Assembly (NCBI GenBank): GCA_964555945.1
Contig: CAZKUL010000002.1
Coordinates: 1-51,750, forward strand
DNA length: 51,750 bases
Source of the DNA: an uncultured Planctomycetales bacterium
GTDB taxonomy: Bacteria; Omnitrophota; Gorgyraeia; Zapsychrales; Fredricksoniimonadaceae
Direction: 5' to 3'
A program made the position numbers and the translations under genes. Shown here piece after piece: positions 17,448 through 50,084 of the stretch. A model generated the notes under the pieces. It worked only from the letters and a program-made list of their open reading frames with translations, was not told the DNA's origin and did not search any database. Numbering within the stretch: position 1 is the stretch's first letter; each line of letters starts with the position of its first letter.

Positions 17448-17468
17448 TCAATTGTACCTGGGTATAAT
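17448..17468 (-). promoter_or_regulatory. Copy of the 21-nt intergenic motif TCAATTGTACnnnGGTATAAT
   Basis: tcaattgtacctgggtataat. On the minus strand this reads ATTATACC-CA-GGTACAATTGA. Confidence 0.6.
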
Positions 17469-17490
17469 GCCGGGACGATCCCTCGCTTGC

Positions 17491-18420
17491 TTAGAGTTTA
17501 TCATCGATCTGGTACAAAACCCCCCCTGCAGTCTCGGGTTGGGGAAACATGTATTTGCGTGCGGAAATCGTGATTTCTGTTTTATTGGCAATGCCTTTGG
17601 TAAGCCTGAGCGCCACCATCGCCCCATGAATATCAGCTTTTATCACACCCTTGGAGGCATCATTCTCCCTGATGGTTCCCATACTCTTGACCACATTGAG
17701 AGAGACTTGGTAGGCATGATCAAAGGTAGCATCAATGTCTTGCTTCACACTGTCCTGACCTATAAACGTCGCTGCGATGGCCACAGGCAGCACAGCCACC
17801 CCTGCAACTGCGGCGACGCCGTAGATCTCCGCATCTTTGATGGCAGCGGCCTTCATAGGGGCAGCCAGTACCAGCAAGCCCAACTGTTCAGCGCTGGGAA
17901 CACTCTTATAGCTCTTGCGGCTATTGACATTGTAGGCCCGGACACTGGGAGGCCCGCTCGTTGAATAGTCCATATAAACAATCTTGCCGATGCTTAAATT
18001 GAGACGGTCAATTTGCATGGGCGCAGACGGGGAAGATTTCGACTGTTGTACTATTTTTAAAGAATCCACATTGAGTTTTCCCTCTTTATTCTTCGTGATC
18101 ACCATGTCTTTGAGCTCAATATCGACAAGTAAAAAATGAGGGGTCTTCTTAAATAGGGAAGCGCGCTTAAAGATGACCTTTATCTGCGGGCAGGACACCA
18201 AGACACCCTCCGGGAACCCGGCAGGGTTATCCATTTTAAAACCGGTAATATGGATTGTTGAGGTAAAAAATTGCAGGGAAAAACCATCCATATGCACCGG
18301 CGTACCGATGATCTTGGTCGCCATATTTGTCACCATGGATTTAAGGATTACATCCTTGGTAAAACCCAGTCCCACAAAAACGGCAACTACGATGCCCAAC
18401 ACTATAAAGAATTTTTTCAT
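17491..18420 (-). CDS. Hypothetical membrane-anchored protein
   Basis: 309 aa with the N-terminal TM anchor MKKFFIVLGIVVAVFVGLGF. I could not assign a domain with confidence. Confidence 0.6.
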   Translation of the reverse strand: MKKFFIVLGIVVAVFVGLGFTKDVILKSMVTNMATKIIGTPVHMDGFSLQFFTSTIHITGFKMDNPAGFPEGVLVSCPQIKVIFKRASLFKKTPHFLLVDIELKDMVITKNKEGKLNVDSLKIVQQSKSSPSAPMQIDRLNLSIGKIVYMDYSTSGPPSVRAYNVNSRKSYKSVPSAEQLGLLVLAAPMKAAAIKDAEIYGVAAVAGVAVLPVAIAATFIGQDSVKQDIDATFDHAYQVSLNVVKSMGTIRENDASKGVIKADIHGAMVALRLTKGIANKTEITISARKYMFPQPETAGGVLYQIDDKL

Positions 18421-18558
18421 AGCCCTAGGGTATTTCCAAGAGAATTTTTATCATGAGTTGATGACTTTCCATAAGATGATTTATAACAAAAACAACATAA
18501 AGACAAAATGAAAACTAGATTAAGGCCAGATAGCTGCAATGAAGGTATGTACTACGCA

Positions 18559-20310
18559 CTAGAATATCCGACGGATTTTATTTTTTATAACGGTTTTGAC
18601 GATGTCCCAGCGGTCTTTTTCTCCTCGGATCATCGCTTCGGCAAAATGCCACGCTTGGGAAGAAGTGATGTGGCCGGGCATGGGGGCTTCATGAGGGTCA
18701 ACGTGGGCGTCAATGACCGATGGGCCAGAGGTGCTCAAGGCTTGACGGAATATCCCTTCAGCCTCCGCGGGATCATCAAGACTAAAGGCCTCTACCCCGC
18801 AGGAACGCGCGAACATGGCGAAATCAATGGGGTGAAGGTCCAGGCCGTATTGGGGATTACCTTCAAAAACAATCTGCTCCCATTTGATCATACCAAAGGT
18901 GTTGTTCTTAAAAATAATGATTTTAACCGGAAGTTTATATTTGGCGATCGTCGCCAGTTCGCACATGAGCATTGAGAATCCACCGTCCCCGCAAAGGCAA
19001 ATGATCTGGCGGCCGGGATTTCCCATGGCTGCACCGACGGCATAAGGCAGCGCATTGGCCATGCTTGAAAAATTACCGGAGACGGAGAATTTCATGCCCC
19101 CACGGATCAAGAGATGACGCGCGGCCCATGTGGTCACCACCCCTGTATCGGCGCAGATAATGCAATCGTTATTGATATGGGCATTAAGCTGGTAGGCAAC
19201 CACCTGCGGTTTAAGCGGTTTGTCTGTGCATGTACCTTCAGCAGTCAACAATTCATTCCACCGCTTCATCCGTTCCTGGGACCTTTGCAGAAAAATCTTA
19301 TCTTCCTGGGGCTGCAGCTGGGTGAGTAAAGCCCGTAACGTTTCCCGGCAATCACCCGTTAATCCCACGTCTACCTTACACCTAAGGCCAATACGGGCCG
19401 AATCAACATCGATTTGGATGGTCCGGACAGGTTGTTTTGGATAAAATTCCAAGTACGGAAAGCTTGTGCCCACCATGATCAAGGTATCGCATTCCTGCAT
19501 GGCATCTTGGGAAGGAGCGGTCCCAAGAAGTCCTATACCACCCGTCGTGTAGGGGCTGTCGTCGGGTACAACGGCCTTGCCCAGAAGCGCTTTTATGATG
19601 ACCCCCTGGGTCAAGGCGGCGAGAGACAGGATTTCCTCGCGCGCATCCAAAGCCTCTCGACCGGCTAGAATGACAATCTTTTTTCCGCTATTGATGATGG
19701 CCGCGGCACTATTTAATTCCAGCGCTGAAGGCACTGGCCTGGACAATTGATAAATATCAGCGCTGTGGGACGGGATATTGGCCACAGAGCGCTGTCCATC
19801 CATTTTCCATTCCTGAATGTCTTTAGGAATATTGATATGGACAACGGTACGCTGACTTAAAGCCGTTTTGATCGCTTCGTCGACAACATTGCAGACATGC
19901 GAAGGGCCCATGATCCGTTCATTATAAGCGGCCACATCCATAAATAATTTATCGAGATCCAGGTCCTGCTTGTAATGGGTACCGATTAGATCATGGAAAG
20001 TATGCCCGGTGATAGCCAGCACCGGCTGGCCGTCGAATTTGGCATCATAAAGCCCGTTGAGTAAATGCACGCCTCCGGGGCCGGAGGTCGCCAGGCATAC
20101 CCCTAAACGCCCGGAGTATTTCGCATAGGCGCAAGCCGCAAAAGCCGCAGCTTCTTCATGGCGCACCTGCACTAATTTGATTTTCTTTTCATTGAGGCGA
20201 AGGACTTCATAAATACCATTGATACCATCCCCGGGAAGACTGAAGATCGTATCCACACCCCACTGCATCAGGCGTTCTATCAGTAATTCGGCGACTGTTT
20301 CATTGGACAT
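18559..20310 (-). CDS. Thiamine-diphosphate enzyme, PoxB-like pyruvate oxidase/dehydrogenase (quinone)
   Basis: 583 aa. The N-terminus is colinear with the PoxB/ALS family (HEEAAAFAACAYAKYSG, ATSGPGGVHLLNGL). The TPP motif is GDGGFSM...NNTFG. Confidence 0.8.
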   Translation of the reverse strand: MSNETVAELLIERLMQWGVDTIFSLPGDGINGIYEVLRLNEKKIKLVQVRHEEAAAFAACAYAKYSGRLGVCLATSGPGGVHLLNGLYDAKFDGQPVLAITGHTFHDLIGTHYKQDLDLDKLFMDVAAYNERIMGPSHVCNVVDEAIKTALSQRTVVHINIPKDIQEWKMDGQRSVANIPSHSADIYQLSRPVPSALELNSAAAIINSGKKIVILAGREALDAREEILSLAALTQGVIIKALLGKAVVPDDSPYTTGGIGLLGTAPSQDAMQECDTLIMVGTSFPYLEFYPKQPVRTIQIDVDSARIGLRCKVDVGLTGDCRETLRALLTQLQPQEDKIFLQRSQERMKRWNELLTAEGTCTDKPLKPQVVAYQLNAHINNDCIICADTGVVTTWAARHLLIRGGMKFSVSGNFSSMANALPYAVGAAMGNPGRQIICLCGDGGFSMLMCELATIAKYKLPVKIIIFKNNTFGMIKWEQIVFEGNPQYGLDLHPIDFAMFARSCGVEAFSLDDPAEAEGIFRQALSTSGPSVIDAHVDPHEAPMPGHITSSQAWHFAEAMIRGEKDRWDIVKTVIKNKIRRIF

Positions 20311-20340
20311 AGCCCTATTGTAGGGATGAAAGGGTGTCGA

Positions 20341-20361
20341 TCAATTGTACCGAGGTGTAAC
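20341..20361 (-). promoter_or_regulatory. Copy of the 21-nt intergenic motif
   Basis: tcaattgtaccgaggtgtaac. It ends 30 nt upstream of the PoxB-like start. Confidence 0.55.
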
Positions 20362-20364
20362 TTC

Positions 20365-23926: not shown

Positions 23927-24286
23927 TTAGGCGGTTTGGAGGATATCTAAAAGTCTATTGACGTCATAAGGTTTGGAGATAAAGCCGCTGATCATGGGCC
24001 CTAGCCCAAGTTTCTTGATCTCTTTTTCAAGAAACGGTTTACCGGACATAAGAATGACCTTACCCTTGAAGCCAGTGTTCTCCATTATTTTTAAAAGATC
24101 GAGGCCATTGATGAAGGGCATTTTAATATCAAGTAGAATAACGTCATAGGGGTGCTTGTTGATGAGACGTACACCTTCCAGACCATCGAAGGCAGCCTGA
24201 ACGCCATACCCTTCAGATGATAAAAGATCAACCATTTCTTCGGACAATTCTTTGTCATCATCGATAAAAAGTATTTTTCTTTTCAT
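23927..24286 (-). CDS. Stand-alone response-regulator receiver (CheY-like)
   Basis: 119 aa. Motifs seen are ILFIDDD, ILLDIKMP and a conserved Lys (SKPY). Confidence 0.88.
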   Translation of the reverse strand: MKRKILFIDDDKELSEEMVDLLSSEGYGVQAAFDGLEGVRLINKHPYDVILLDIKMPFINGLDLLKIMENTGFKGKVILMSGKPFLEKEIKKLGLGPMISGFISKPYDVNRLLDILQTA

Positions 24287-24290: not shown

Positions 24291-26042
24291 TTATCTTTTC
24301 TTGGGTAAAGAGATGGTTACCGTGGTCCCGTGGCCTATTTGGCTTTTTATATCGAATTCACCATTATGCACAGTGATGATTTGCTGGCAGACCGTGAGGC
24401 CAAGGCCGGTGCCTTTGGCCTTGGTTGTAAAGAACGGCTCGCGTATCTTCTTGAGATTTTCAGGCGGAATGCCAATACCGTTATCCTTGATATGAATTCC
24501 TATTGACGCGCTGTCATCAACGTGCAAGCCCACGGTGATGACGCCCTTGACACCTGCGGTCGCATCAAAAGCGTTATTGAGAAGATTACTAAAAAGTTCC
24601 TTCATCTGCAAGGAGTCGGCGTCAATAATCACCTTTGCGTTGCCTGTCCATTGGATGAGTTTAAACCTTCGCTTACCATCCCTCTTTTTAATGGCACTGA
24701 TACATTCATTAAGAATGGAGGGAATATCAACGGCTTCATAATGTGGCATTCTTATTTTTGAGCAAAAGAGGAGATTATTGATGATCTGGTCACTTTCGAG
24801 CACCTTTTTCTCAATATTGTCAAGGTGCTTTTCAATCGGCAAATCCTGCTTTTTGCGGCGGATATTCTGCGTCGCAATATTGATGGCCGCCAAAGGATTA
24901 CGCAGCTCATGGGCCACGGTTGCCGCCAATGTCCCAATATCCGATAAACGCTTGGATTGGGCCAATGCGTGGTGGGCGATTTCCATTTTGTTTTCCATAT
25001 CAAATTTATCGATCCCCTCGGCAATCAAAGGTGCCAGTTGTTCAATGAACTCAATCTTACTTAAATGGACCATGCCAGCTTTTTCGTCAGCCAAATGGAT
25101 GGCTGCGGTCATTTGACCCCGGTTATAGACGGGAACGATGGCAACAGACATAAAACCATTCTTCACACGGGCTTTCAAAAATCTTATTTTTGCCTTCTTT
25201 GAGATGCCGGCAACGAACTCTCTTGTATTATCGCAGCGAAAAGACCCTTTGGGGGTCATGGCCATGACGTATTCCGGTTCTACCTGAGGATTTAAGACAT
25301 CGATATTAAAGACCTCTTTTTTAAGAAGGGAAATTCCATTCTCACGTTTCCAGAATCCAGGCGTAAAGCCTTCAAAGGAATCATAGTGAAGTGGTTCCTT
25401 GCCATTGATGACCTGGAGTCCCACACAACGGCATTGGGACCAGTCCTTAAGGTATTTAATCAAGGTGCATGAATACTGGTTTTGAGAAATTTTCTTGGAA
25501 ATCAATAGCTTCAAGACCTTATTGCTGGCATTAATAAGTCTCTCGCTCGCCTGTCGGTCAAGAATTTCATGCTTTAGTTCTTCATTCTTCCCCGTTAGCT
25601 GATGCGTACGTTGAGTGACCTGTAGTTCCAATGACTCATAATACTTTTCAAGCTTTTCTTCCGTCTTTTTACGGTCCGTAATGTCACGGATATTGCATTG
25701 GATGACGTTCTTCCCATTAACAGTATAGATATTGTTGACAAATTCAACCTGGATCTTCTTGCCTCTCTTGCTTTCAAGAGGCAAGTCTTCAAAGCGTGTA
25801 TACTTTTTGACCTGCAATTCTTTAAACCTGGCCATGGGTATCTTCTGGAGAGGAAAAATGTCCCAAAAATCCTTTTTTATCATTTCCTGATGGGAATACC
25901 CCAGTAATTTGAACAAAAACGGATTGGCATCGTCAATCCTGCCTGTCTGGGCATTTAAAATAGCTATCCCGTCTCTGGCGGTCTCAAAGAGCCTGCGGTA
26001 GCGTATTTCAAAACTTTGGGAAGAAACAGGCGTGAGCGTCAC
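24291..26042 (-). CDS. PAS/GAF-like sensor histidine kinase
   Basis: 583 aa with an N-terminal PAS. The H-box is VAHELRNPL, and N, G1 (DNGIGI) and G2 (GTGLGL) boxes are present. Confidence 0.9.
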   Translation of the reverse strand: MTLTPVSSQSFEIRYRRLFETARDGIAILNAQTGRIDDANPFLFKLLGYSHQEMIKKDFWDIFPLQKIPMARFKELQVKKYTRFEDLPLESKRGKKIQVEFVNNIYTVNGKNVIQCNIRDITDRKKTEEKLEKYYESLELQVTQRTHQLTGKNEELKHEILDRQASERLINASNKVLKLLISKKISQNQYSCTLIKYLKDWSQCRCVGLQVINGKEPLHYDSFEGFTPGFWKRENGISLLKKEVFNIDVLNPQVEPEYVMAMTPKGSFRCDNTREFVAGISKKAKIRFLKARVKNGFMSVAIVPVYNRGQMTAAIHLADEKAGMVHLSKIEFIEQLAPLIAEGIDKFDMENKMEIAHHALAQSKRLSDIGTLAATVAHELRNPLAAINIATQNIRRKKQDLPIEKHLDNIEKKVLESDQIINNLLFCSKIRMPHYEAVDIPSILNECISAIKKRDGKRRFKLIQWTGNAKVIIDADSLQMKELFSNLLNNAFDATAGVKGVITVGLHVDDSASIGIHIKDNGIGIPPENLKKIREPFFTTKAKGTGLGLTVCQQIITVHNGEFDIKSQIGHGTTVTISLPKKR

Positions 26043-26779
26043 TTTGTCCTTTGGATTTTATTTCGGTACGCGGTCGGGGTAAGCGCAAAAATGCGCTTAA
26101 ATTGGCGGCTAAAGGATTCGCTATTTTCATAGCCCAATGCCTCAGCTACCTGGTAGATATTATAATCTAAGTCAACCAATAATCTTTTGGCTTTCGCCAT
26201 TTGTACATTGAGGCGGTAATCGCTAAAATTGATGCCCTCCCTGAGCTTAAAAACACGGCTTAAATATTTTGGACTCAAGGACACCAGCGTCGCAATATCA
26301 TGTAAGAGGATCTTTTTACAACTATTCTTTACCACAAAGTCCTTTGTTCGTTGGATCTTGCTTTTGATGCCGTTCTTGCTAAGCCCATTAAGACTTTCAC
26401 CATCTAAGAACCGCTCCACAATGTCCTTTAATTTCTGCACATCAAGGGGTTTTTCAAGGTAATCATCCGCATGTCCCTTGAGCGCTTCAATGGCCGTGTC
26501 CTTTGAACTGGTCCCTGTAACAATAATGACGCAAAGATCAGGGTTATTTTTTTTGATGACAGCCAAGACATCAAGTCCGCTCATGCCTTTCATCATCACA
26601 TCCAGGACCACGACCCCAATATTATTGATACGTTTCAGCAAATTTAAGGCTCCCTCGCCGCTTTCTGCCTCTATGACTTCTTCTCCCTCAAGAAAATCAC
26701 GGAGTTCGCTTCTTAATATTGCATCATCATCCACAATCAGGACTTTACTTCTCATACGGGATCTCTCCTTGATTTGCAT
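26039..26779 (-). CDS. Response regulator with AraC-type HTH output
   Basis: 246 aa. REC motifs are VLIVDDD and VVLDVMMKG. The C-terminal AraC HTH is LSPKYLSRVFK...ESFSRQFKRIF. It overlaps the HK gene by 4 nt. Confidence 0.9.
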   Translation of the reverse strand: MQIKERSRMRSKVLIVDDDAILRSELRDFLEGEEVIEAESGEGALNLLKRINNIGVVVLDVMMKGMSGLDVLAVIKKNNPDLCVIIVTGTSSKDTAIEALKGHADDYLEKPLDVQKLKDIVERFLDGESLNGLSKNGIKSKIQRTKDFVVKNSCKKILLHDIATLVSLSPKYLSRVFKLREGINFSDYRLNVQMAKAKRLLVDLDYNIYQVAEALGYENSESFSRQFKRIFALTPTAYRNKIQRTK

Positions 26780-26862
26780 CTAAACAACTTGGCCTCATCA
26801 ATGATCATGATTTGCAAAGAATGTAAATCAATGGGTTTATTCTAGGGAAGGGATAAAAAATA

Positions 26863-26883
26863 ACAATTATACCTGGGTATAAT
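26863..26883 (-). promoter_or_regulatory. Copy of the 21-nt intergenic motif
   Basis: acaattatacctgggtataat, 84 nt upstream of the REC-AraC start. Confidence 0.55.
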
Positions 26884-33543: not shown

Positions 33544-33586
33544 CAACTGGTTGATGACTGTAGTCTAGTGAAAGGGTCGTGATGAA

Positions 33587-33607
33587 TCAATTGTACTGAG
33601 GTATAAT
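33587..33607 (-). promoter_or_regulatory. Copy of the 21-nt intergenic motif
   Basis: tcaattgtactgaggtataat. It is separated from the DUF1328-like gene by the family B repeat. Confidence 0.6.
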
Positions 33608-33623: not shown

Positions 33624-34244
33624 TTATTCCGAGGAGGATGTGATGCCGGCTTGTTTGGCAAAGCCGATGAGTTCGGTGACGGTTTTGGCTTGCATCTTCT
33701 GCATGACCCGTCCGCGGTGGACCTTGATGGTCTGCAGGGAAGTCCCCCGTTTGGACGCGATTTGTTTATTTAACAGGCCTTGGGCCACAAAAAGAAAAAC
33801 TTCCAGTTCCCTGGGGGACAATGTCTTGATGCGCTGCCTGATCTTAAGGATTTCACCTTGCTTTTTATTCTGGGTCTTACTTTTTAAGATGGCCTGGGCA
33901 ATGGCCTCAAGCAGTTTCTTTTCAGTAAAAGGCTTAGGCAAAAAATCAATGGCCCCTGCCTTCATCGCTTTGACGCTCATGGGGATGTCCCCATGGCCGG
34001 TGATAAAAATAATAGGCGTGATGATCCCCCGCTGGGCCATGATTTCCTGAAGGGCAAATCCATTGATATTAGGCAAACGGATATCCAAGACAAGACATGA
34101 AGGTAATTTAGGATGCTTGAAGGCCAGGAAATCGGAGGCCCGCGTAAAGGTCTCAACCGTAAAGCCGTTTGATCCCAGCAGCAAAGACAAGGCCTTGCAA
34201 ATAGAGGCATCATCATCAACCACATAGACAATGGCATTGGTCAT
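33624..34244 (-). CDS. Response regulator, FixJ/NarL (LuxR HTH) family
   Basis: 206 aa. REC motifs are VYVVDDD and LVLDIRLP. The C-terminal segment LSPRELEVFLFVAQGLLNKQIA is a LuxR-type HTH. Confidence 0.92.
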   Translation of the reverse strand: MTNAIVYVVDDDASICKALSLLLGSNGFTVETFTRASDFLAFKHPKLPSCLVLDIRLPNINGFALQEIMAQRGIITPIIFITGHGDIPMSVKAMKAGAIDFLPKPFTEKKLLEAIAQAILKSKTQNKKQGEILKIRQRIKTLSPRELEVFLFVAQGLLNKQIASKRGTSLQTIKVHRGRVMQKMQAKTVTELIGFAKQAGITSSSE

Positions 34245-35527
34245 GGCTTATTCTTCATGTTCACAGGAATGGTAAAAAAGAAAGTCGAACCGCGATCCAG
34301 ATTATTCCGCCCTTCCAGATGTCCGCCATGGGCCTCGACAATGGAACGGCTGATGGAGAGTCCCATCCCCAGACCATCCGGCTTGCTCGTAAAGAAATGC
34401 GCAAAGAGCTTCTTTTTATTTTCCTCTGGAATACCACAACCAGAATCTTTGACTTCTATCAGGATCGTATTATTATCCTGACGGAATGTGCGGACCATCA
34501 ATTCATGGGAATCCTTGCTTGTCTCCATGGCTTCCAGGCTATTGCTGATCAGATTGAGGAGCACCTGCTGCAGTTGGATGCGGTCCCCGTAAATTTGCGG
34601 AAGACTTTCCGCCAAGTCGAATTTAATAGCATTATTGCCTGCTGTGATGTGAGGCATGATGAGCTTGACCGTATCATTAATAATGGCATTGATATCAATC
34701 GCCTCGAATGTAGGCTTGGTCTTTTTTAACAAGGACCTCATCCTGCGAATGACTTCAGCGGCCCTTTGGTCATCGTTAATGATGTACTGCAGGATCTCCT
34801 TGAGTTTGGGCTCCCTGTCATTAAGTATCCGTTGGCCGGCCTGGGCATAGGAAAGGATCGCGGTCAAAGGCTGGCTAATTTCATGGGCCAGGGATGACAC
34901 AAATTCCGCCAGTTTTCCCACACGCGTCACATGCAGGAGTTCTTCGCGCTGGTCGGCAATCTCCAAATCCCTCTGTCTCATCAAGGTGGTATCGGTCTTA
35001 TTGCCTACATAGTGGGTCGTGATGCCGTTTTTATCACGGACCAACGTCATGCGCAATAAACTCCAAAATTTCTCGCCGTTCTTTTTAAAATTGAGCAGCT
35101 CTCCGTGAAAGGACTTCCCCTCGCGCAGTGCTTGTTTGATCTCCTCATAAACATGTGCATTATCATCCGATCCATAAAGCAAGAAATAATTTCTTCCAAT
35201 GACTTCACTTTTTGAATAACCAGTAAGCATATAAAAAGAGGGGTTAGCATAGACAATGGGATAATTAGGCTTCTGGGCATCGATAATAAAAATGCCATCA
35301 AATGTCGATTCCATGGCCTTGGTGCGAATGTGGATTTGTTCTTCAGCCACCTTTTCCCGGTCAGCACCCTGTTTTTCCCGGTCAGCGCCTTGTTTTTCGC
35401 GGTCCACCCCTTGCTTTAATTGGCCTTCCTGCTCACGGACCTGCTCCTCCAGATGGCTACGGGACCTTTGTCGCAAGAGGAGCCCTTGGGGTATTTTCTT
35501 TTTTACCTTACTTATTTTTCTGTTCAT
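34241..35527 (-). CDS. PAS sensor histidine kinase
   Basis: 428 aa with a PAS domain. The H-box is LAHEISQPL, G1 is DSGCGI and G2 is GMGLSI. It overlaps the RR gene by 4 nt. Confidence 0.92.
   Translation of the reverse strand: MNRKISKVKKKIPQGLLLRQRSRSHLEEQVREQEGQLKQGVDREKQGADREKQGADREKVAEEQIHIRTKAMESTFDGIFIIDAQKPNYPIVYANPSFYMLTGYSKSEVIGRNYFLLYGSDDNAHVYEEIKQALREGKSFHGELLNFKKNGEKFWSLLRMTLVRDKNGITTHYVGNKTDTTLMRQRDLEIADQREELLHVTRVGKLAEFVSSLAHEISQPLTAILSYAQAGQRILNDREPKLKEILQYIINDDQRAAEVIRRMRSLLKKTKPTFEAIDINAIINDTVKLIMPHITAGNNAIKFDLAESLPQIYGDRIQLQQVLLNLISNSLEAMETSKDSHELMVRTFRQDNNTILIEVKDSGCGIPEENKKKLFAHFFTSKPDGLGMGLSISRSIVEAHGGHLEGRNNLDRGSTFFFTIPVNMKNKP
35351..35413. repeat. 3 x 21-nt in-frame tandem repeat in the HK gene
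   Basis: cttttcccggtcagcaccctg / tttttcccggtcagcgccttg / tttttcgcggtccaccccttg. It encodes (Q)G(V/A)DREK x3. Confidence 0.85.
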
Positions 35528-35533: not shown

Positions 35534-35896
35534 CTATACAAATGACGAGACCTTGATCAATTCCACCAATGTCTCACCATTCACGGGTTTTTGCAAAAAA
35601 CCTACCGCGCCTACCTTTAAAGCCCTCTCACTGGCGTCATCTTTCTTCTCAGCAGAAATAAATATGATCGGACGTTTGGATCCAGAGTCCAAAATCCTTT
35701 GTTGTGTCTCCCATCCATCCAAGCCCGGCATATGGATATCCAGCAGCAAACAACCAGGTTCATCATGGGGCACCTTGTCAAAAAAACTTTGCGCGGAATT
35801 AAACGTCTGTACCTCGAACTCATAGGTCATCAAAAGCGTCTTGAGCGCGCGGCATACGGACTCATCGTCATCAATAATAAAAATATTGGGTGGCAT
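35534..35896 (-). CDS. Stand-alone response-regulator receiver
   Basis: 120 aa. Motifs seen are IFIIDDD, LLLDIHMPG and LQKP. Confidence 0.88.
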   Translation of the reverse strand: MPPNIFIIDDDESVCRALKTLLMTYEFEVQTFNSAQSFFDKVPHDEPGCLLLDIHMPGLDGWETQQRILDSGSKRPIIFISAEKKDDASERALKVGAVGFLQKPVNGETLVELIKVSSFV

Positions 35897-35951: not shown

Positions 35952-36215
35952 TTAAACTTGCCTAACCACCAAGCGTGTCAACCCCACCAAAACCACAGCA
36001 CCGAGAACAGCCATCAGGAACATACCGAAGGAAGAGCCGATCGAGAGTCCCAAAACATTGGATATCCATCCGCCAAGCATGGCGCCCACAATCCCAATGA
36101 CGATATCTCCCAGGACCCCAAAGCCCCGGCCGCGTGTGATGATACCCGCCACCCATCCGATGATTCCACCGACAAAAAGAAACCAAAACCAATAACCTAA
36201 AGAATTATGTTCCAT
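35952..36215 (-). CDS. GlsB/YeaQ/YmgE-family stress membrane protein
   Basis: The ATG at 36215 has an AAGGAG SD. The segment GIIGWVAGIITRGRGFGVLGDIVIGIVGAMLGGW is the family hallmark. Confidence 0.8.
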   Translation of the reverse strand: MEHNSLGYWFWFLFVGGIIGWVAGIITRGRGFGVLGDIVIGIVGAMLGGWISNVLGLSIGSSFGMFLMAVLGAVVLVGLTRLVVRQV

Positions 36216-36291
36216 ATCGTTCTCCTTTTTCATAGTGACCACCTGTCACGTTGAGTTCATGGATGTATTCTATGGAAGGGTCATGGCTAAA

Positions 36292-36312
36292 TCAATTGTA
36301 CCAAGGTATACG
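36292..36312 (-). promoter_or_regulatory. Copy of the 21-nt intergenic motif
   Basis: tcaattgtaccaaggtatacg. The core TACC-TT-GGTA is a perfect palindrome. Confidence 0.55.
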
Positions 36313-36722: not shown

Positions 36723-36752
36723 ATTGTACCTGATTTTTGATGCCCCTGGCAA
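36723..36752 (-). promoter_or_regulatory. Sigma70-like promoter containing a half copy of the 21-nt motif
   Basis: The minus strand reads TTGCCA (36752-36747), an 18-nt spacer, then TACAAT (36728-36723). This is about 35 nt upstream of the start at 36687. The left half ATTGTACCTG of the motif is conserved. Confidence 0.45.
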
Positions 36753-39898: not shown

Positions 39899-40654
39899 CT
39901 ATAGTTTGTCTTTAAACCATTCCAAGGAAGGATTCATCAATAAATCCGGCTGCTGGTCAAACATGGTTTCCGCATGACCAAGCTTGGGAAGAATGATGAG
40001 CTTCTTGGGCTCCTTGGCTTTGTTATACAATTCCCGGCTGTGCCTGGGATGAATTAACCAGTCTTCTTCTCCGTGGATAAACAAGACCCCTCGGGGAGAT
40101 ATCTGGTCGACAATGTCAATGGGAGCTATCTTTAGCTGCCACGGATGGCTGGGCCTGACCCCCTTGCCCTTGGCTTTAAACCCTAGGTTTAACAAAAAAT
40201 CATCCCACATGCCCCGTTTCCAAAAATGATAATCGATTTTCCAGAAATCATAAGGCGCACTGACGGCAATCACAGTCTTTACGTCCGGGTTCTGCGCGGC
40301 TTCTATCAGGCTGATGGCTGCCCCTAAAGAAAATCCCATAAGACCAATTCCCTCATAGCCGCAACTTTTGACATAAGCAATAACGGCCTGAAGGTCGACG
40401 CACTCCTTGGCCGTCCATGTAAAAAGTCCTGAACTTTTGCCATGTCCGCGAAAATCAAAACTGACCACATCAAAATGAAGGGCAATAACCTTAGCGATCT
40501 GTTGAAACAGATAGGTGTCTTTGGCGTTATAAAATCCATGCGCCAGGATAACGGCCTTTTTAAATCCACCCTCATGGTGCTCCGCTTCGATGCGGTGTTC
40601 GTCTTTAGTCTTTAAGGTCACGTTACGCACTGACTTCTCCCTTGTTGCGTTCAA
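39899..40654 (-). CDS. Alpha/beta hydrolase
   Basis: 251 aa with the nucleophile elbow GFSLGA and HG...D/H motifs. The start is uncertain: the track start is TTG, and GTG codons at 40630 and 40621 are alternatives. Confidence 0.8.
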   Translation of the reverse strand: MNATREKSVRNVTLKTKDEHRIEAEHHEGGFKKAVILAHGFYNAKDTYLFQQIAKVIALHFDVVSFDFRGHGKSSGLFTWTAKECVDLQAVIAYVKSCGYEGIGLMGFSLGAAISLIEAAQNPDVKTVIAVSAPYDFWKIDYHFWKRGMWDDFLLNLGFKAKGKGVRPSHPWQLKIAPIDIVDQISPRGVLFIHGEEDWLIHPRHSRELYNKAKEPKKLIILPKLGHAETMFDQQPDLLMNPSLEWFKDKL

Positions 40655-43600
40655 CTAATTCCTGAGCTAACATTTTAATTTTCTTTAAATCCAGTTTACC
40701 GGTGCCGAGCAAAGGAATGGCATCAATCTTATAATAACACTCCTTTTTGGGAACCCATAAATTCGGAATGCCTTTTCTCGTTAAGGCGTCCGTAATCGCC
40801 TCAATATCGATATCAACCGTATGCAAGACAATCAACCGTTCCCCTTTTTTCTCATCAGCGACCGATGTGACGGCAACCACCGGGTCAACAGCACCGATGG
40901 CCTCCATGATATTCTCTTCGATCTTAATATGCGGTACCATCTCCCCGCCAATTTTACTAAAACGGCTTAAGCGATCGGTGATCTTGATAAAGCCGTCTTC
41001 ATCCATATTAGCGATGTCGCCGGTGATATACCAGCCATCCTTGATGACCTCAGCGGTCTTAGAGGGATTATTCAAATAGCCTTTCATCACATTGGCACCC
41101 TTGATGAGCAATAGGCCCTCTTCATCAGGCCCCTTGGTTTCAAAGGTGTCGGGATCCACAATTTTGGCGGCCACCCCTGGAATGGGATTGCCTACCTTTC
41201 CAAATTTATGCCCCACCTGGCGCTCATTGGTTTCCCTCCACACATAATCCGGCGTACCCACCATGGCGATGGGAGATAACTCCGTGGCACCATACCCTTC
41301 CAAAGGTATGATACCAAATTTTTCCTCAAATGCCTGCGCCAGTGTTTCTTTGAGCTTCTCAGCACCGACCACCGCCATGCGTAAATGGCTGAACTGTTCC
41401 TTGGTGCATTTCTTGATATACGCGGACATAAAGGTCGGTGTCCCCATAAGAATAGTACCCTTATAACGTAAGGCCAATTTTCCGATTGTTGAGGCGTCCA
41501 GGGGATTGGTATGAAAGGCCACACCCACCGCTGTCCCAATGGGAAATCCCATGGTGGCTGTAAATCCAAAAGAATGGAAAAACGGCAATGCCGCGATGAC
41601 GACGTCATTCTTCTTAATATTAAAGACCTGATAGAAATTCTCGATATTGGAAAAAATATTCCCGTGGGTCAGCATCACACCTTTAGGTTCCCCTGTCGAT
41701 CCGCTGGAGAAGATGACAGTGGCCACATCATCGACGTTTGCCCTATCGCCTTTGACGAACACATGGCTTAAAAATGCCTTCGGCAGCATAAGGGCGGCCA
41801 GGAAATAAATCCCGCTCTTAACGGGGCTCACCCTTGTTTTTAAATCTTCCAGAAAGACCATGCCCTCCCGGGGTTGCATGCCTAGTTTTTCAATAAAAGC
41901 CCTGGAGGTGACGATCGTCTTCATCTGGCATTGTTTGATGCAGGATTCAAAAGCTTCCTGCGACAATGTAAAGTTTAAATTGACCGGTACCTTGCCTGCA
42001 AAGGCCACCGCCAAATTGGCGATCACCCCCATGCACGAGGAGGGCAATAAAAGGCCTACCATTTCGTTTGTTTCCAGGGGACGGCGATCTTGAGGAAATA
42101 AAATCTGGCCCAAGGAAACCACCGCCGCAAAACTTTTGGCATAGTTGAATTCCAAACCCATGGAATCGGCCATGGAAAACTTGAAAGGATGCCGCTTGAC
42201 CTCATCGATGAAGGCCAGGTGTAATTTCTTGCGCCAGGCGCCCCTTAAAATGTTAGCTTGCGCGCCTAATTCCTGAACTGTTTGTCTCACCTGGAGGGCT
42301 TTTGATGCCGCTGCCATCGGTTTTCCGAAAACGATAGAGACCGGATACAAAGTGAGTTTCGGAAACTTCCAAAAGAATCTTCCATCTGAAAAACTAAAAA
42401 TGCTGGGCCAAATATTATCCAAATACAAAGGGATGATAGGGACATCCACATTCTTCATGATATGTTCAAAACCCCGATTAAAGGGAAGCATATTGCCTGT
42501 CCTGGTCAAAACCCCTTCGGGAAAAATGCATACCAATTCGCCATTCTGAATTGCTTCCCTGGCTGTCGTCAGCGCGAGCAAAGTGGCCTTGGGACCTTCG
42601 TCTTTATCAATGGGGATGGCCTTAGTGACGCGGCAAATGAAATGAATAAGGGGCATCTCATAGATCTTGCGATAAACCATAAAACGCACCGGCCTTTTTA
42701 ATGCCGCCGCGATCAACACGCCATCAACGTAGGAAATGTGGTTGGCCACGAGCAGCGCTCCCCCTTTGGGCGGAATATGGTCACCTCCGACTATTTTTAA
42801 ACGATAGACGATGTGCGCCAGCAGCCAGTTAAAAAGCCTGATGAAAGCAATAGGAAGCTTGACCACAATAAAAACTGTTGCCACCAAGGACAGTCCTGAG
42901 GCAATCAAAAATACCTTATCTGAACTTATCCCCATTTGCCCGGCGATAATCCAAAGAAAACCACCGGCGACCAGGGAGCCGGCAGCGGTCACGATCCCCA
43001 ACACAGAGAGATACATCCCCCGATATGCCTCCGGCGAATATTGTTGAAAAAAGGCATTGAGGGGAACGGTGTAAAATCCTCCGCATATCCCGAGGACAAA
43101 TAGGAAACAGAGGATCACATCATAAGGACCACCTATTCCCAGCAAAAAAGTCATTACACAGATGCCCAGGGCCCCTAGAGGTACGAGCCCCAGTTCCACC
43201 TTGCCTTCAGAGGCCCCACCGGCAAGCACACTGCCTAAGGCCAGCCCAAAGGAAACAGCCAGCATCAAAAGGCTGATTTGGATCTCCCCCACATGTAATA
43301 CGTGCGGCCCATAGACTAAAATATTCATCTGAAAGATGGAGCCGGCAAAGTTAAAAAAGGCCAGGGCCAACATGGCCAAAAACAAACCCTCGTCTTTGTA
43401 AATTCCTTTTAAGGCCAGCACGAATTCCCCATAAATATCTTTCTTAATAAAAATTCTCTGTGTCTTTTCCAATTTAATAAGAAGGCTTAATCCAAAGCCG
43501 ACGATCATCAGGGCCACCATCAAAAAACCAACCATGTATAACTGATGGTGGAATATTTTAAACAGCAGCCCACCTAAAGCCGTCCCTAATATAATGCCTA

Positions 43601-44048
43601 CAAAGGTGGCCATTTGCATATAGCCGTTGCCTTTGGATAGTTCCGACTCTTCCAGCATTTCTGCGAGCAAACCTGCCCTGGAGGGGCCAAACAAAGCGCT
43701 GTCGGCTTCAAATAAGAATAAGATGGCTGTTAAGAACCAAAGGTTCCCCTTAAACAGGGCCCAGCAAGCCAACAGGGCCATGAACATCTTGAGGGCAAAC
43801 ATGGCGACGATCACATTTCTCTTATAAAACCTGTCGGCCAAATAGCCGCCCAGGGGTGAGAAAATAACAAAAGGTAAAATAAAAACAATCCCAATGATGC
43901 TGACAAACCGGGCAATTTCCCCTGCACCTAATAACACCTGGATGGCACAGAATGAAACAATGATCTTAAACAGATTGTCACTAAAGGCCCCCACAAACTG
44001 GGTCAGACCCAAGGCTTTAAATGACAGTGTCTGGCATGTGCGTTCCAT
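40623..44048 (-). CDS. Triple fusion: MFS lysophospholipid transporter (LplT-like), PlsC acyltransferase and acyl-ACP synthetase (Aas-like)
   Basis: 1141 aa. About 12 TM segments of MFS type come first. Then come HISYVDG and FPEGVLTRTG (PlsC motifs). The AMP-binding motifs are SSGSTGEPKG, GYGATE and the GWYITGD/KIGGEMV tail. Confidence 0.88.
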   Translation of the reverse strand: MERTCQTLSFKALGLTQFVGAFSDNLFKIIVSFCAIQVLLGAGEIARFVSIIGIVFILPFVIFSPLGGYLADRFYKRNVIVAMFALKMFMALLACWALFKGNLWFLTAILFLFEADSALFGPSRAGLLAEMLEESELSKGNGYMQMATFVGIILGTALGGLLFKIFHHQLYMVGFLMVALMIVGFGLSLLIKLEKTQRIFIKKDIYGEFVLALKGIYKDEGLFLAMLALAFFNFAGSIFQMNILVYGPHVLHVGEIQISLLMLAVSFGLALGSVLAGGASEGKVELGLVPLGALGICVMTFLLGIGGPYDVILCFLFVLGICGGFYTVPLNAFFQQYSPEAYRGMYLSVLGIVTAAGSLVAGGFLWIIAGQMGISSDKVFLIASGLSLVATVFIVVKLPIAFIRLFNWLLAHIVYRLKIVGGDHIPPKGGALLVANHISYVDGVLIAAALKRPVRFMVYRKIYEMPLIHFICRVTKAIPIDKDEGPKATLLALTTAREAIQNGELVCIFPEGVLTRTGNMLPFNRGFEHIMKNVDVPIIPLYLDNIWPSIFSFSDGRFFWKFPKLTLYPVSIVFGKPMAAASKALQVRQTVQELGAQANILRGAWRKKLHLAFIDEVKRHPFKFSMADSMGLEFNYAKSFAAVVSLGQILFPQDRRPLETNEMVGLLLPSSCMGVIANLAVAFAGKVPVNLNFTLSQEAFESCIKQCQMKTIVTSRAFIEKLGMQPREGMVFLEDLKTRVSPVKSGIYFLAALMLPKAFLSHVFVKGDRANVDDVATVIFSSGSTGEPKGVMLTHGNIFSNIENFYQVFNIKKNDVVIAALPFFHSFGFTATMGFPIGTAVGVAFHTNPLDASTIGKLALRYKGTILMGTPTFMSAYIKKCTKEQFSHLRMAVVGAEKLKETLAQAFEEKFGIIPLEGYGATELSPIAMVGTPDYVWRETNERQVGHKFGKVGNPIPGVAAKIVDPDTFETKGPDEEGLLLIKGANVMKGYLNNPSKTAEVIKDGWYITGDIANMDEDGFIKITDRLSRFSKIGGEMVPHIKIEENIMEAIGAVDPVVAVTSVADEKKGERLIVLHTVDIDIEAITDALTRKGIPNLWVPKKECYYKIDAIPLLGTGKLDLKKIKMLAQELVERNKGEVSA

Positions 44049-45069: not shown

Positions 45070-46338
45070 CTAAATTTTAATCTCTAAGAGTTCGTCCCAC
45101 CGCGTTGTGTACCGCTTTGATTTCCGCGACTGCTTCATAAACCAGGGCTTACCTAATCCTTCAGCCGCAAAGAAGAGCTGGCCGCTATCAGCCGAACGGT
45201 TGTACTCATCCATGACCTTCATTAACCTCTGATCCGGACTTTCCGTATAAACAGGCTTAAACAAATCCTGCTGGACTTTAGTTTCATCCGAAAAATTGGT
45301 CAACATGACCCCACAACTTTTATAACGATAACCTTCCTTGTATATCCTCAATAACAGCTTCTTGGCGATCTCAATCAACTGCGGCGTGTAGGCCGTTGGC
45401 GGTGTTATATCAATGCTGGCCGAATTGCGGTAATAATGCCGTTTAAACGGGTCCGTTTCAATAAAGACTTGGGCATGCCCGGCCACCGCATTTTGATGAC
45501 GCAATTTCTCCGCAGCCTTTGAGACATAGGCCGAAACGGCTTCTTGCATCTCATTGAGGCCGCTGACCTCATAGCCAAAGGTACGGGAAGTGACTATGGC
45601 CTTCTTGTTGGGCTGGACTTCATCACAAGATATGCAAGGCACTCCTCTTAGCTCCCTGACGGTCCGCAGGGTCACAACAGTTAAATGCTTTTTTATCCAC
45701 TCATCAGGTGCTTGTCTCAATTGTAATGCGTTGTTGATGCCATGACGGCTTAGAAACAGGGCCTTTTCGTGCCCTATCCCCCAAATTTCCCGCACCGGCG
45801 TCTTTTCAAGCCACTGGTCAATGTCCTTTCCATCAATAAAGCAAAATACCCCACCCATCTTGGGATTGTCCTTGGCAATATGATTGGCAACCTTGGCCAG
45901 GGTCTTTGTAGGGGCAATGCCTACAGAAACCGGAATACCAGTCCGTTCTTTGACCGTGCTTCTGATCTTCCGGCCATAATCTAAATATCCATGATTTTCA
46001 AAACCTGCCAAAGACAGGAAAGCTTCATCAATCGAATAAATTTCCAAATTGGGTGTGAATGCAGATAACGTGGCCATGACCCGGCCGGACATGTCTCCGT
46101 ATAAAACAAAATTTGCCGAAAATACCTTAACGTCATGCTGTTTGACCAGCTGTTCGCATTTAAAAATCGGCGCGCCCATGGCAATGCCAATGTCCTTGGC
46201 CTCCTGGGACCGCGAAATTGCACAACCGTCATTGTTGGACAATACGACTACGGGCTTATTTTTAAAGGCAGGATGAAATACTCTCTCACAGGATACAAAG
46301 AAGCTGTTGCAGTCAACGAGGGCAAAAATATTTTTCAT
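45070..46338 (-). CDS. umuC: Y-family translesion DNA polymerase, UmuC-like
   Basis: 422 aa. The N-terminus is FALVDCNSFFVSCERVF...PVVVLSNNDGC. It lies downstream of a umuD-like gene. Confidence 0.9.
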   Translation of the reverse strand: MKNIFALVDCNSFFVSCERVFHPAFKNKPVVVLSNNDGCAISRSQEAKDIGIAMGAPIFKCEQLVKQHDVKVFSANFVLYGDMSGRVMATLSAFTPNLEIYSIDEAFLSLAGFENHGYLDYGRKIRSTVKERTGIPVSVGIAPTKTLAKVANHIAKDNPKMGGVFCFIDGKDIDQWLEKTPVREIWGIGHEKALFLSRHGINNALQLRQAPDEWIKKHLTVVTLRTVRELRGVPCISCDEVQPNKKAIVTSRTFGYEVSGLNEMQEAVSAYVSKAAEKLRHQNAVAGHAQVFIETDPFKRHYYRNSASIDITPPTAYTPQLIEIAKKLLLRIYKEGYRYKSCGVMLTNFSDETKVQQDLFKPVYTESPDQRLMKVMDEYNRSADSGQLFFAAEGLGKPWFMKQSRKSKRYTTRWDELLEIKI

Positions 46339-46351
46339 ATTAAACCTACAT

Positions 46352-46780
46352 TTATACAGAATGAATCACATGAACCACCACTCCCCACACTTCAAAATCC
46401 ATGCTGTCATTTATTTCAATAGGACCATATTTAGGATTCTCGGATACCAAAGACAACTTATCTCCCCTTTTACTGATCCTTTTAACGGTAAATTCCCCAT
46501 TAACAACGGCGACAATAATACGTTTATCTTTGGGTTCAAGGGAACGGTCAACAATGAGGATATCGCCGGAATTTATGCCGGCCCCTACCATCGAATCCCC
46601 TTTGACCTTCACAAAAAAAGTCGAGGCCGGATGTTTGATTAAATACTCATTCAAATCTAATTTCTTGTCTAAATAATCTTCTGCTGGGGAAGGGAAACCA
46701 GCCTTAATGCGGGATAGGTAAAGCGGCAGCTGCTGCTGGACGGTTGTATCAGCTTTAAAGATGTCTGTGATTTTTACCAT
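46352..46780 (-). CDS. umuD: UmuD/LexA-type S24 self-cleaving peptidase
   Basis: The start is taken as the ATG at 46780 (the track start at 46807 is TTG). An AG cleavage site (IKAGFPSPAEDY), the Ser motif GDSM and a Lys in FTVKRI are present. Confidence 0.88.
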   Translation of the reverse strand: MVKITDIFKADTTVQQQLPLYLSRIKAGFPSPAEDYLDKKLDLNEYLIKHPASTFFVKVKGDSMVGAGINSGDILIVDRSLEPKDKRIIVAVVNGEFTVKRISKRGDKLSLVSENPKYGPIEINDSMDFEVWGVVVHVIHSV

Positions 46781-46788
46781 GTGCCGTA

Positions 46789-46817
46789 ACTTTACTCCCC
46801 GGCCCAAAAATGGTCAA
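46789..46817 (-). promoter_or_regulatory. Sigma70-like promoter for umuDC
   Basis: The minus strand reads TTGACC (46817-46812), a 17-nt spacer, then TAAAGT (46794-46789). Only 8 nt separate the -10 from the ATG, so the mRNA would have a very short leader or none. Confidence 0.4.
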
Positions 46818-47299: not shown

Positions 47300-47304
47300 A
47301 ATAG

Positions 47305-47333
47305 AAAAAAACACCCGACCTTTCGATTGGGTG
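47305..47333 (-). terminator. Rho-independent terminator after the small His-rich lipoprotein gene
   Basis: The minus strand reads CACCCAATCG-AAA-GGTCGGGTG (one mismatch) followed by TTTTTTT. Confidence 0.65.
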
Positions 47334-47368
47334 CTTCTTAAGGATTGCGCCTTCTGCTGGCTTAAAGT

Positions 47369-47518: not shown

Positions 47519-47658
47519 ACATCCTCCACTGTCTAACTGTTAGTTCTGCGGTCCGGTTTAGGACAGCTTTCCTGGATAGTTATAACAGGACGAACATTAA
47601 GATACGATGAAAAAACCGGGACAAATGATTACGAGACGGATGCCCCCCGAGTGTCGTG

Positions 47659-48725: not shown

Positions 48726-48865
48726 ATGATCTGCCTTTCATTAATGGTGGGTCGTGACCACCCTTTCGTTTTTTCTCTCCCCACCTTGTCTTAATACATA
48801 CAAAATGGGGAGAGAAATAAGGCAACTACTGCTTCCTAGGCCTTAGTTACCAATATATTTGAATC

Positions 48866-49345: not shown

Positions 49346-49532
49346 CCCCTGTTATACTTGTTGATGGAAAAGGCATTGATTCATGGGACCTGCCTGACAA
49401 GAAATCTTCTGCAATATCTTGAAACAACCATCTAAATTCTTCTTTAGCAATGGATGCTTCCTCCATAGTTGCTGCATTCATCTCCGGTTCGTACCAGCTT
49501 GAAGACGGGTAATACGGTTCTTTTGATTTCAT
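49317..49532 (-). CDS. Hypothetical small acidic protein
   Basis: 71 aa with no recognisable domain. It overlaps the rhodanese ORF by 29 nt. Confidence 0.4.
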   Translation of the reverse strand: MKSKEPYYPSSSWYEPEMNAATMEEASIAKEEFRWLFQDIAEDFLSGRSHESMPFPSTSITGGGDEPTNTA

Positions 49533-49592
49533 AAAAACCCTCTTTCTGACTTTATCTTAATGATTGCATTCTAGGGATTGGGCCAAAATGAA

Positions 49593-49613
49593 TCAATTGA
49601 ACTGAGGTATAAC
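49593..49613 (-). promoter_or_regulatory. Copy of the 21-nt intergenic motif
   Basis: tcaattgaactgaggtataac, 60 nt upstream of the start at 49532. Confidence 0.5.
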
Positions 49614-49620
49614 CTGCTAT

Positions 49621-49920
49621 TTACCTTTGTGTATTTGGGTTTCCTTCGTTAATAAAACTTAACGAGTCCTGATCGATATTTCTTAAAATTCGTTCTGCTT
49701 CTAACCAGTTATCCAAGGCATCTCCTCCTTTTTTATCATGAATTTGATAGGCCCTAAGCTGTATCAAAGGGCTATCAACGGCAGTCTTCGGTTGAATATC
49801 ACCGGAATCCATTAAATCATTTGCTTGATAAGGACTGCTCCCATAATGAAATGGGGCTGAACCGTGCCCTTTATCAGCGATTTGCTCTGCCATGCTCTTA
49901 AGATGTGTATATTTCGGCAT
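49621..49920 (-). CDS. DUF2934-like small protein
   Basis: 99 aa. The C-terminal segment LRAYQIHDKKGGDALDNWLEAERIL matches the DUF2934 signature as I remember it. Confidence 0.65.
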   Translation of the reverse strand: MPKYTHLKSMAEQIADKGHGSAPFHYGSSPYQANDLMDSGDIQPKTAVDSPLIQLRAYQIHDKKGGDALDNWLEAERILRNIDQDSLSFINEGNPNTQR

Positions 49921-50063
49921 TTTTCTTCTTTATCCGTTATTGAATCGTTTGACTAACTGATTACCCCTTAAGCACTCAAATGAGGGACAAAATACCGAAA
50001 CTTGATTTTTGTCGAATGTTCTCTCCAATGCATAGCTGATTGTATTCTTGGGGGCAGAGAGTA

Positions 50064-50084
50064 TCAATTGTACTGGGGTATAAT
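50064..50084 (-). promoter_or_regulatory. Copy of the 21-nt intergenic motif
   Basis: tcaattgtactggggtataat. Confidence 0.6.

Follow-up and report, generated by a model that had tools for sequence, protein, structure and literature searches.

The 51,750-nt stretch of DNA analysed here (hereafter the window; contig CAZKUL010000002.1 of assembly GCA_964555945.1, from an uncultured Planctomycetales bacterium that GTDB places in the Omnitrophota) carries a 21-nt, nearly palindromic motif repeated between its genes, and the question is what kind of element this motif represents and which protein might read it. The initial annotation saw in it a candidate regulon signal, a reading that is supported by what follows. 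The motif is a composite, in which an 18-bp dyad, ATTATACC-NN-GGTA(C/T)AAT, is fused to a sigma-70-type -35 hexamer, TTGAtt, with a TAnAAT -10 box beyond it. The dyad is most likely an operator of the FixJ/StyR-like response regulator encoded at 33624-34244 rather than of the AraC-type response regulator of the same window.

Seven full copies, at 17448, 20341, 26863, 33587, 36292, 49593 and 50064, are present in the 51.7-kb window with the text and coordinates first reported for them, and on the gene strand they read ATTATACC-NN-GGTACAATTGA. When up to three mismatches to TCAATTGTACCNNGGTATAAT were allowed, eight matches were obtained, the eighth being the reverse reading of the palindromic copy at 26863; dinucleotide shuffles gave none, and none is expected by chance. 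A position weight matrix (PWM) trained only on independent loci from other genomes, where the motif is recovered as well, picked out exactly these seven copies with scores of 24-36 bits, while the next best match in the window, a reverse reading, reached 11.6 bits and shuffled sequences 13 bits at most. The number of copies is thus borne out by the consensus search, by the independently trained matrix and by the empty shuffles. Their placement is confirmed as well: all seven lie on the minus (gene) strand, between open reading frames (ORFs), with a start codon 30-160 nt downstream. A half copy at 36723, which had been counted with the family, has to be removed from it: its text is present but scores below 8 bits, and it is the -10 of an ordinary promoter. 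A search of the window against Rfam returned no RNA family, and the conserved leaders thus correspond to no known RNA.

The anatomy of the element appears when the sequences downstream of the copies are aligned. In all seven, TTGAnn is followed after 16-17 nt by TAGAAT, TACAAT or TAGACT. Because this -10 box lies 16-17 nt past the motif in every copy, the terminal TTGA(nn) is the -35 hexamer, and the motif therefore belongs to a complete sigma-70-type promoter. An independent scan for the sigma-70 consensus found TTGAnn-16/17-TAGAAT at four of the five copies within its range. Upstream of the -35 lies the 18-bp inverted repeat, ATTATACC-NN-GGTAyAAT, whose axis falls between motif positions 9 and 10 and whose final T is at the same time the first base of the -35. 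This arrangement changes several details of the earlier description. A -35 had been recognised only for the half copy, but each full copy has its own in the TTGA that ends the motif. The TACAAT embedded in the motif, previously considered as a -10, has to be rejected in this role, as a distinct -10 stands at a fixed distance of 16-17 nt after TTGA in every full copy and leaderless ATG codons lie 6 nt beyond it. Of the proposed dimeric regulator site overlapping the -10, the dimeric site stands and the overlap does not, as the dyad abuts and overlaps the -35 and has its centre at about -43. The promoter units of the window and the genes in front of which they lie are as follows:

17423-17468, minus strand: unit 1, dyad ATTATACC-CA-GGTACAAT, TTGAAG, 17 nt, TAGAAT (36.3 bits); ahead of a 103-aa ORF (17105-17416, minus strand) and the genes behind it, the GTG of the ORF (17416) being 6 nt past the -10 and of leaderless type
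20317-20361, minus strand: unit 2, dyad GTTACACC-TC-GGTACAAT, TTGATC, 16 nt, TACAAT; ahead of a PoxB-like thiamine pyrophosphate enzyme (18559-20310, minus strand), with a leaderless ATG 6 nt past the -10
26839-26883, minus strand: unit 3, perfect 18-bp palindrome ATTATACC-CA-GGTATAAT, TTGTTA, 16 nt, TAGAAT; ahead of genes for REC-AraC (26039-26779), a PAS histidine kinase, REC, DUF883 and probably cytochrome bd (minus strand)
33562-33607, minus strand: unit 4, dyad ATTATACC-TC-AGTACAAT, TTGATT, 17 nt, TAGACT, starting 17 nt past the stop of the regulator gene; ahead of DUF1328, an OsmY-like protein with three BON domains, an iron permease, DUF6515 and a BON protein (minus strand)
36267-36312, minus strand: unit 5, dyad CGTATACC-TT-GGTACAAT, TTGATT, 17 nt, TAGAAT; ahead of GlsB (35952-36242) and the operon of receiver, histidine kinase and regulator (minus strand)
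49568-49613, minus strand: unit 6, dyad GTTATACC-TC-AGTTCAAT, TTGATT, 17 nt, TAGAAT; ahead of a 71-aa ORF, a rhodanese and possibly pterin-dehydratase-like and ferritin genes (minus strand)
50039-50084, minus strand: unit 7, dyad ATTATACC-CC-AGTACAAT, TTGATA, 17 nt, TACAAT; ahead of a 99-aa protein (49621-49920, minus strand) which BLASTP groups with proteins of the DUF2934 family from other loci
36723-36752, minus strand: the excluded half copy, whose TACAAT is the -10 of TTGCCA-18-TACAAT ahead of a 110-aa ORF

The element is not confined to this genome. A collection of species-representative genomes was scanned with TTATACCNNRGTACAATTGA, and at least 116 loci (8-12 kb pieces of other genomes) matched. 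About 100 of those listed belong to Omnitrophota-type metagenome-assembled genomes (MAGs), named Candidatus Omnitrophota, Omnitrophica or 'uncultured Planctomycetales' bins of the same gene content, and eight of the listed loci are obvious chance matches inside Bacteroidota or Firmicutes genes. In loci selected by the regulator protein, the sites are enriched between genes: ORFs of 120 aa or more take up 85% of the DNA there, but 58 of 62 sites fall outside such ORFs (P = 3e-43). On this distribution, the motif is to be regarded as a phylum-wide conserved element and not as a local regulon, and the window itself as part of an Omnitrophota-type genome. Bona fide motif promoters were also observed in MAGs labelled Elusimicrobia, Firestonebacteria, UBP3, Peribacteria, Clostridia and 'proteobacterium' (L044, L052, L103, L069, L102, L003/L042, L011), and L003, L052, L069 and L103 also encode orthologs of the regulator with 69-74% identity. 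Such MAGs could be mislabelled bins or sister lineages, or could result from horizontal transfer.

Promoter geometry is conserved together with the motif. Among 166 sites from the listed Omnitrophota-type loci and the window, TAnnnT occurs 15-19 nt after the -35 in 86%, with a spacer of 16 nt in 79 and of 17 nt in 60, and 21-22 nt separate the end of the dyad from the -10 at 139 of the 166; among the chance matches from other phyla, TAnnnT stands at that spacing in two of eight. The register of dyad, -35 and -10 is fixed within 1 nt (spacer of 16 or 17 nt) at nearly all of about 250 sites. Furthermore, 23 sites have an ATG or GTG exactly 6 nt past the -10 that begins an ORF of 50 aa or more. 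Among random positions, 6.3% show a qualifying start 3-11 nt away, which amounts to about 0.7% for each of these distances under an even spread. Starts at this distance fit leaderless mRNAs, with transcription beginning about 7 nt past the -10, which puts the dyad centre at -42.5 for the 16-nt spacer or at -43.5 for the 17-nt spacer. The dyad is thus centred within the class-II range of -41.5 to -44.5, touches the -35 and keeps a fixed register with the -10. Leaderless translation seems to be common in this lineage, the exact distance of 6 nt being seen in the window at 20310 and 17416 and, for example, in L031, L048, L064 (6131) and L079. In the promoter-proximal half-site, motif position 15 is C in 79% of the sites where symmetry predicts T, and a symmetric T there would make a perfect TATAAT just upstream of the -35. 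RpoS-type promoters are recognised by a -10 with C at -13, their -35 being weak or missing and a conserved upstream dyad lacking. In a comparison with them limited to the window, C at -13 was found in four of the seven copies, alongside the strong TTGA -35 and the dyad.

Ahead of the -35, the motif forms a true dyad, whose halves never stand apart: wherever the right half GTACAATTGA is present in the loci, a recognisable left half accompanies it. A subclass of sites consists of perfect palindromes, ATTATACC-NN-GGTATAAT. At L017 (4896-4913) and L111 (6636-6653), a lone perfect palindrome has TTGA on both sides (TCAATTATACCnnGGTATAATTGA), apparently forming two divergent promoters off one dimer site. 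Taken together, the paired halves, the perfect palindromes and the shared divergent sites point to a dimeric DNA-binding protein rather than to a sigma-factor element, and the logo of the protein-selected loci has the layout of an operator, with two half-sites of about 7-8 bp, a 2-bp gap and an ACC-NN-GGT centre.

In regard to the protein that would bind this dyad, the initial annotation had named two candidates, a LuxR-type and an AraC-type response regulator. The former is the better one and belongs to a three-gene set behind unit 5:

33624-34244, minus strand: proposed binder, FixJ/StyR-like response regulator with REC and GerE/LuxR helix-turn-helix domains
34241-35527, minus strand: proposed cognate soluble histidine kinase with one LOV-fold PAS domain and a FixL-type DHp/CA module
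35534-35896, minus strand: single-domain receiver, the first regulatory gene of the operon

Since this set lies behind unit 5, the operon of the regulator itself carries a site, which would allow autoregulation. The best solved homologs of the regulator are StyR (1yio, E = 2e-48) and FixJ (5xso, E = 5e-41), and a look-up of the exact protein 33624-34244 found no record. A tblastn search of the motif-selected loci found orthologs of the receiver, the kinase or the regulator in 49 loci, the regulator with 62-82% identity, and the usual gene order there is motif, receiver, kinase, regulator, motif, next gene. For the REC-AraC protein, the same search found no ortholog in these loci; this part of the initial proposal was dropped, as a phylum-wide binder should have orthologs near the motif in other genomes. 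In the reciprocal direction, metagenome loci were chosen by the regulator protein alone, with no use of the motif. Of 36 loci with regulator orthologs of at least 68% identity, 34 have the motif, at 79 sites in 255 kb, and in 33 a copy lies 0-250 nt past the regulator stop; for homologs of 46-58% identity, a single locus in 44 (261 kb) has the motif, as a weak copy. The perfectly symmetric variant is found at seven of ten sites at the operon's own promoter versus 27 of 236 elsewhere (Fisher P = 5e-5), which fits autoregulation via a high-affinity site. Across 67 Omnitrophota orthologs, the recognition helix, LQTIKvHRgRVMqKm, shows at least 95% conservation, matching the near-invariant operator.

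The link between regulator and dyad extends beyond the phylum. Contigs with distant regulator homologs differ in composition, being mostly GC-richer (up to 67% GC), and are therefore probably from other lineages. They hold 8-2-8 palindromes with the core AC[CT]-NN-[AG]GT, mostly ACC-NN-GGT, located 26-120 nt past the stop of the response regulator gene (e.g., ATTAGACCAAGGTCCAAT, ATTGGACCAAGGTCCAAT, CGTATACCAAGGTATACG and CCTTTACCAAGGTAAAGG), for which we estimate a chance expectation of about one in all 261 kb. The next gene encodes a single receiver in eight of the nine distant sites examined, and several of the loci, some of them lacking TTGA, share with Omnitrophota a -10-like box 22-23 nt past the dyad. 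The loci with such palindromes are:

L152 (6620), L153 (6646), L158, L160, L166, L168 (6721)
L171, L172 (1393), L176 (1857), L177 (2837), L186 (6645), L190 (1377)

Dyad arms and protein vary together. Where E-K-T precedes the recognition helix, the arm is GAC[CT] in eight of eight loci, and where E-I/A/V-T, or L-Q-T in Omnitrophota, stands in its place, the arm is [T/A]ACC; the association of [T/A]ACC arms with other residues covers seven lineages, StyR included, and is correlative, with few independent lineages.

The proposed partner kinase finds its best matches among LOV-FixL fusion proteins and LOV domains. In its PAS domain (residues ~70-185), the LOV signature GxNCRFLQ(G) is replaced by GRNYFLLYG; x-x-Y-F-x-x is present in all kinase ortholog matches that span the motif (38 of 40), and the cysteine in none. 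A canonical LOV blue-light photoreceptor is ruled out by the absence of this flavin-adduct residue, and by its sequence the PAS domain is assigned to a cysteine-less LOV-fold sensor class. Oxygen-sensing equivalogs of FixL and FixJ were rejected too, as the NCBIfam models score below their cut-offs (203 bits against 255 for the regulator on FixJ, 197 against 850 for the kinase on FixL) and the PAS domain is LOV-like rather than haem-binding. The single-domain receiver may, by analogy with known circuits, be a feedback element or a phosphate sink.

Several known systems resemble parts of this arrangement. In class-II activation by LuxR and TraR, the lux box is centred at -42.5, and GerE/LuxR helix-turn-helix dimers occupy dyads that, at about -42 to -44, overlap the -35 region. 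These proteins differ in being activated by a ligand rather than by phosphorylation, and a good -35 is usually missing from their promoters. A close parallel is offered by StyS/StyR of styrene catabolism in Pseudomonas (with the related TodS/TodT), StyR being the best solved homolog of the regulator. Its operator was read directly from the styR-styA spacer of plasmid pSTY of Pseudomonas sp. VLB120, where a perfect palindrome, ATAAACCATGGTTTAT, lies 98 nt past the styR stop; using the -8 primer coordinate of PMC2442086, its centre is at -42.5. StyR dimerises upon phosphorylation and binds the high-affinity STY2 site of PstyA at 'about -40', which is essential for activation (PMC2442086). The shared features are a 7-2-7 repeat with an ACC-NN-GGT core (ATAAACC-AT-GGTTTAT compared with TTATACC-NN-GGTAyAA in Omnitrophota), an operator just behind the response regulator gene and the same promoter position of about -42.5. 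On the other hand, the half-sites disagree at two of their seven positions, the large kinase StyS (about 109 kDa) contrasts with the small single-PAS kinase of Omnitrophota, and StyR serves one catabolic operon with IHF and extra low-affinity sites, whereas Omnitrophota have one site per promoter and many stress promoters.

FixL/FixJ-FixT of Caulobacter shares with the present operon the FixL-type catalytic core, a response regulator that scores best on the FixJ model and a single-receiver gene in the circuit, FixT being a single-domain receiver that acts as a negative-feedback inhibitor of FixL (PMC7078487). It differs in its haem-binding PAS domain, in place of the LOV-like one of Omnitrophota, and in its regulon, which comprises microaerobic respiration and nitrogen fixation rather than stress proteins. 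Likewise, in DosS/DosT-DosR of Mycobacterium tuberculosis, a response regulator of the LuxR/NarL family runs about 50 stress and dormancy genes from promoter sites. For the proximal sites of DosR, the centre lies near -43.5. The palindromic DosR consensus, TTSGGGACTWWAGTCCCSAA (PMC2275270), has the same ACy-NN-rGT centre, but phylum, response regulator subfamily, sensors (GAF-haem) and gene content are all different. As to the regulated genes, the families OsmY/BON, DUF1328 (YtjA), GlsB, DUF883 (ElaB/YqjD), entericidin, lmo0937-type DUF5670 and PoxB recall the sigma-S, sigma-B and EcfG regulons, yet the common element here is a factor dyad on sigma-70-like promoters and not an alternative -35/-10.

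Putting these observations together, we consider it probable that the phosphorylated regulator, bound as a dimer to the dyad near -43, acts as a class-II activator of sigma-70-type promoters, with positive autoregulation and receiver feedback. According to this model, the LOV-fold PAS kinase (34241-35527) would phosphorylate the regulator (33624-34244), which would then dimerise and occupy the dyad centred at -42.5/-43.5. The bound dimer would touch RNA polymerase in the manner of LuxR-type activators and turn on the promoters of small envelope and stress proteins, those of its own operon, often via a perfectly symmetric site, and those of single-domain receiver genes. The receivers would probably act back on the kinase, by serving as a sink for phosphate or by inhibiting it in a FixT-like way. 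The module of regulator, dyad and receiver would predate the Omnitrophota, in which the regulon may have widened to a general-stress-like set including the REC-AraC operon, cytochrome bd and the PoxB-like enzyme. What the sequences show directly is the anatomy of the element, its conservation across the phylum, the geometry of its promoters and its linkage to and covariation with the regulator; physical binding, the direction of regulation and the sensed signal are what we infer from them. A number of observations speak against the model. The TTGA -35 and the near-consensus -10 are unusual for activator-dependent promoters and would equally suit a repressor, and the C at motif position 15 is not explained by a symmetric dimer alone. 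Regulator and motif are both lineage-specific, so that their co-occurrence is partly phylogenetic, and the operon linkage is equally expected if the operon is merely targeted by another factor. In addition, many distant homolog loci have no dyad behind the response regulator gene, and the PAS domain lacks the LOV flavin-adduct residues.

The same regulator and dyad could alternatively work by repression, the dimer occluding the -35 of intrinsically active promoters until stress releases it. With a near-invariant TTGA, a near-consensus -10 and a spacer of 16-17 nt, the promoters might indeed fire unaided, and the one-base overlap of dyad and -35 would suit a repressor. However, occlusion does not need the register that is kept at nearly all of the ~250 sites, which argues for a stereospecific contact with RNA polymerase rather than for mere occlusion; the -10-like box 22-23 nt past the dyad in several distant-phylum loci without TTGA points the same way, and the homologous StyR is an activator bound at that position (PMC2442086). 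We therefore regard repression as unlikely. It is less likely still that another, unlinked dimeric factor or the REC-AraC protein binds the dyad and the FixJ-like operon is merely one of its targets. The REC-AraC operon likewise carries the motif, but its regulator has no orthologs in the motif-selected loci and AraC-type proteins are not usually readers of short perfect palindromes, while the dyad arms co-vary across phyla with the residue preceding the recognition helix of the FixJ-like response regulator, and the placement just behind the response regulator gene is kept even in StyR.

The remaining explanations dispense with the dimer. The whole 45-nt unit could be a promoter with an extended -35 that is read by an alternative sigma factor dedicated to stress, as one option of the initial annotation had it; the conservation of 21 nt and of a T-rich spacer ahead of general-stress-type genes would agree with this, as would the STAS-like/HATPase_c_2 pair at 50355-51616, a possible partner-switch module. 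A sigma factor needs neither a genuine inverted repeat, with its symmetric variants, nor lone dyads shared by divergent promoters, the TTGA -35 and TAnAAT -10 are of the housekeeping consensus, and the STAS/HATPase pair is without homologs in the other loci, which makes a dedicated stress promoter very improbable. The multiple, partly palindromic copies might be taken for ends of a mobile element or for dispersed repeats of the REP type, but this reading can be practically dismissed: the copies are single and without partner ends, they keep fixed distances to the -10 box and to start codons, and they occupy orthologous positions in about 100 genomes among the matches listed, with outer flanks that are not conserved.

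The genes associated with the element were compared across the phylum by taking the first gene behind 146 sites. A single-domain receiver is the commonest (28 of the 146), followed by DUF2934 (5), STAS-MlaE permeases (4) and DUF5670/lmo0937-type proteins (4), by DUF3309, DUF1328, DUF6515, radical-SAM/B12 and entericidin with three each, and then by OmpA, GlsB and others; DUF883 and BON/OsmY are also among the small stress-type genes found behind this architecture. The stress-type character of the gene set, first noticed in the window, thus holds at the phylum level.

Some further features of the window touch on its individual units. The cluster at 13168-17416 behind unit 1 had been labelled PepSY, but Pfam finds no PepSY domain in it. 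The first 43 residues of the 103-aa ORF (17105-17416) match the N-terminus of 375-aa STAS-MlaE permeases, which recur as motif targets elsewhere (L026, L034, L062 and L093), and the remainder is unmatched; a broken STAS-MlaE gene was ruled out, as the homology is confined to these 43 residues. Behind the copy at 26863 lies a second two-component set, composed of REC-AraC (26039-26779), a PAS kinase (24291-26042) and REC (23927-24286). Its presence suggests a regulatory cascade that may be specific to this genome, because the set is not conserved in the other loci. Directly upstream of the copy at 50064, adjoining genes on the minus strand (50355-51616) encode DUF4325 (STAS-like) and HATPase_c_2 proteins, resembling a partner-switch module, and no homologs of the pair were found in any of the retrieved loci. 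A 1116-aa protein (4516-7866, minus strand), with a receiver as its sole Pfam match, has homologs beside motif sites in L045, L056, L063 and L070. Between the motif clusters lie umuD/umuC (45070-46807) and a large MFS/acyltransferase/AMP-binding fusion (40623-44048) with an adjoining MarR gene, and no motif copy stands ahead of these genes.

A response-regulator operator at a class-II position is a well-known kind of feature. What is new here is this particular member, its conservation throughout a phylum, its stress-type regulon and the cross-phylum module of regulator, dyad and receiver. Searches of the literature library available here found nothing relevant linking Omnitrophota to a promoter motif, a regulon, FixJ or a general stress response. 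The Omnitrophota are widespread and uncultivated, and we know of no previous work on their transcription control. The present results give the phylum an explicit promoter model, with a -35, a -10 and frequent leaderless starts, together with a defined operator and a named candidate regulator, kinase and feedback receiver, by which the regulon becomes scannable in any MAG. We regard it as a serious, if still tentative, possibility that in Omnitrophota, and in some neighbouring candidate lineages, the general stress response depends not on an alternative sigma factor but on a phosphorylation-controlled FixJ/StyR-like response regulator with a cysteine-less LOV-fold kinase, acting via one near-invariant operator fused to the -35, and that this circuit has grown from an ancient cross-phylum feedback module whose operator specificity may be readable from one residue ahead of the recognition helix (Lys with G). 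If true, this would be among the few general-stress-like regulons tied to a two-component activator instead of a dedicated sigma factor, and the covariation of the dyad would offer a simple specificity rule for the large and poorly characterised FixJ/StyR branch of response regulators.

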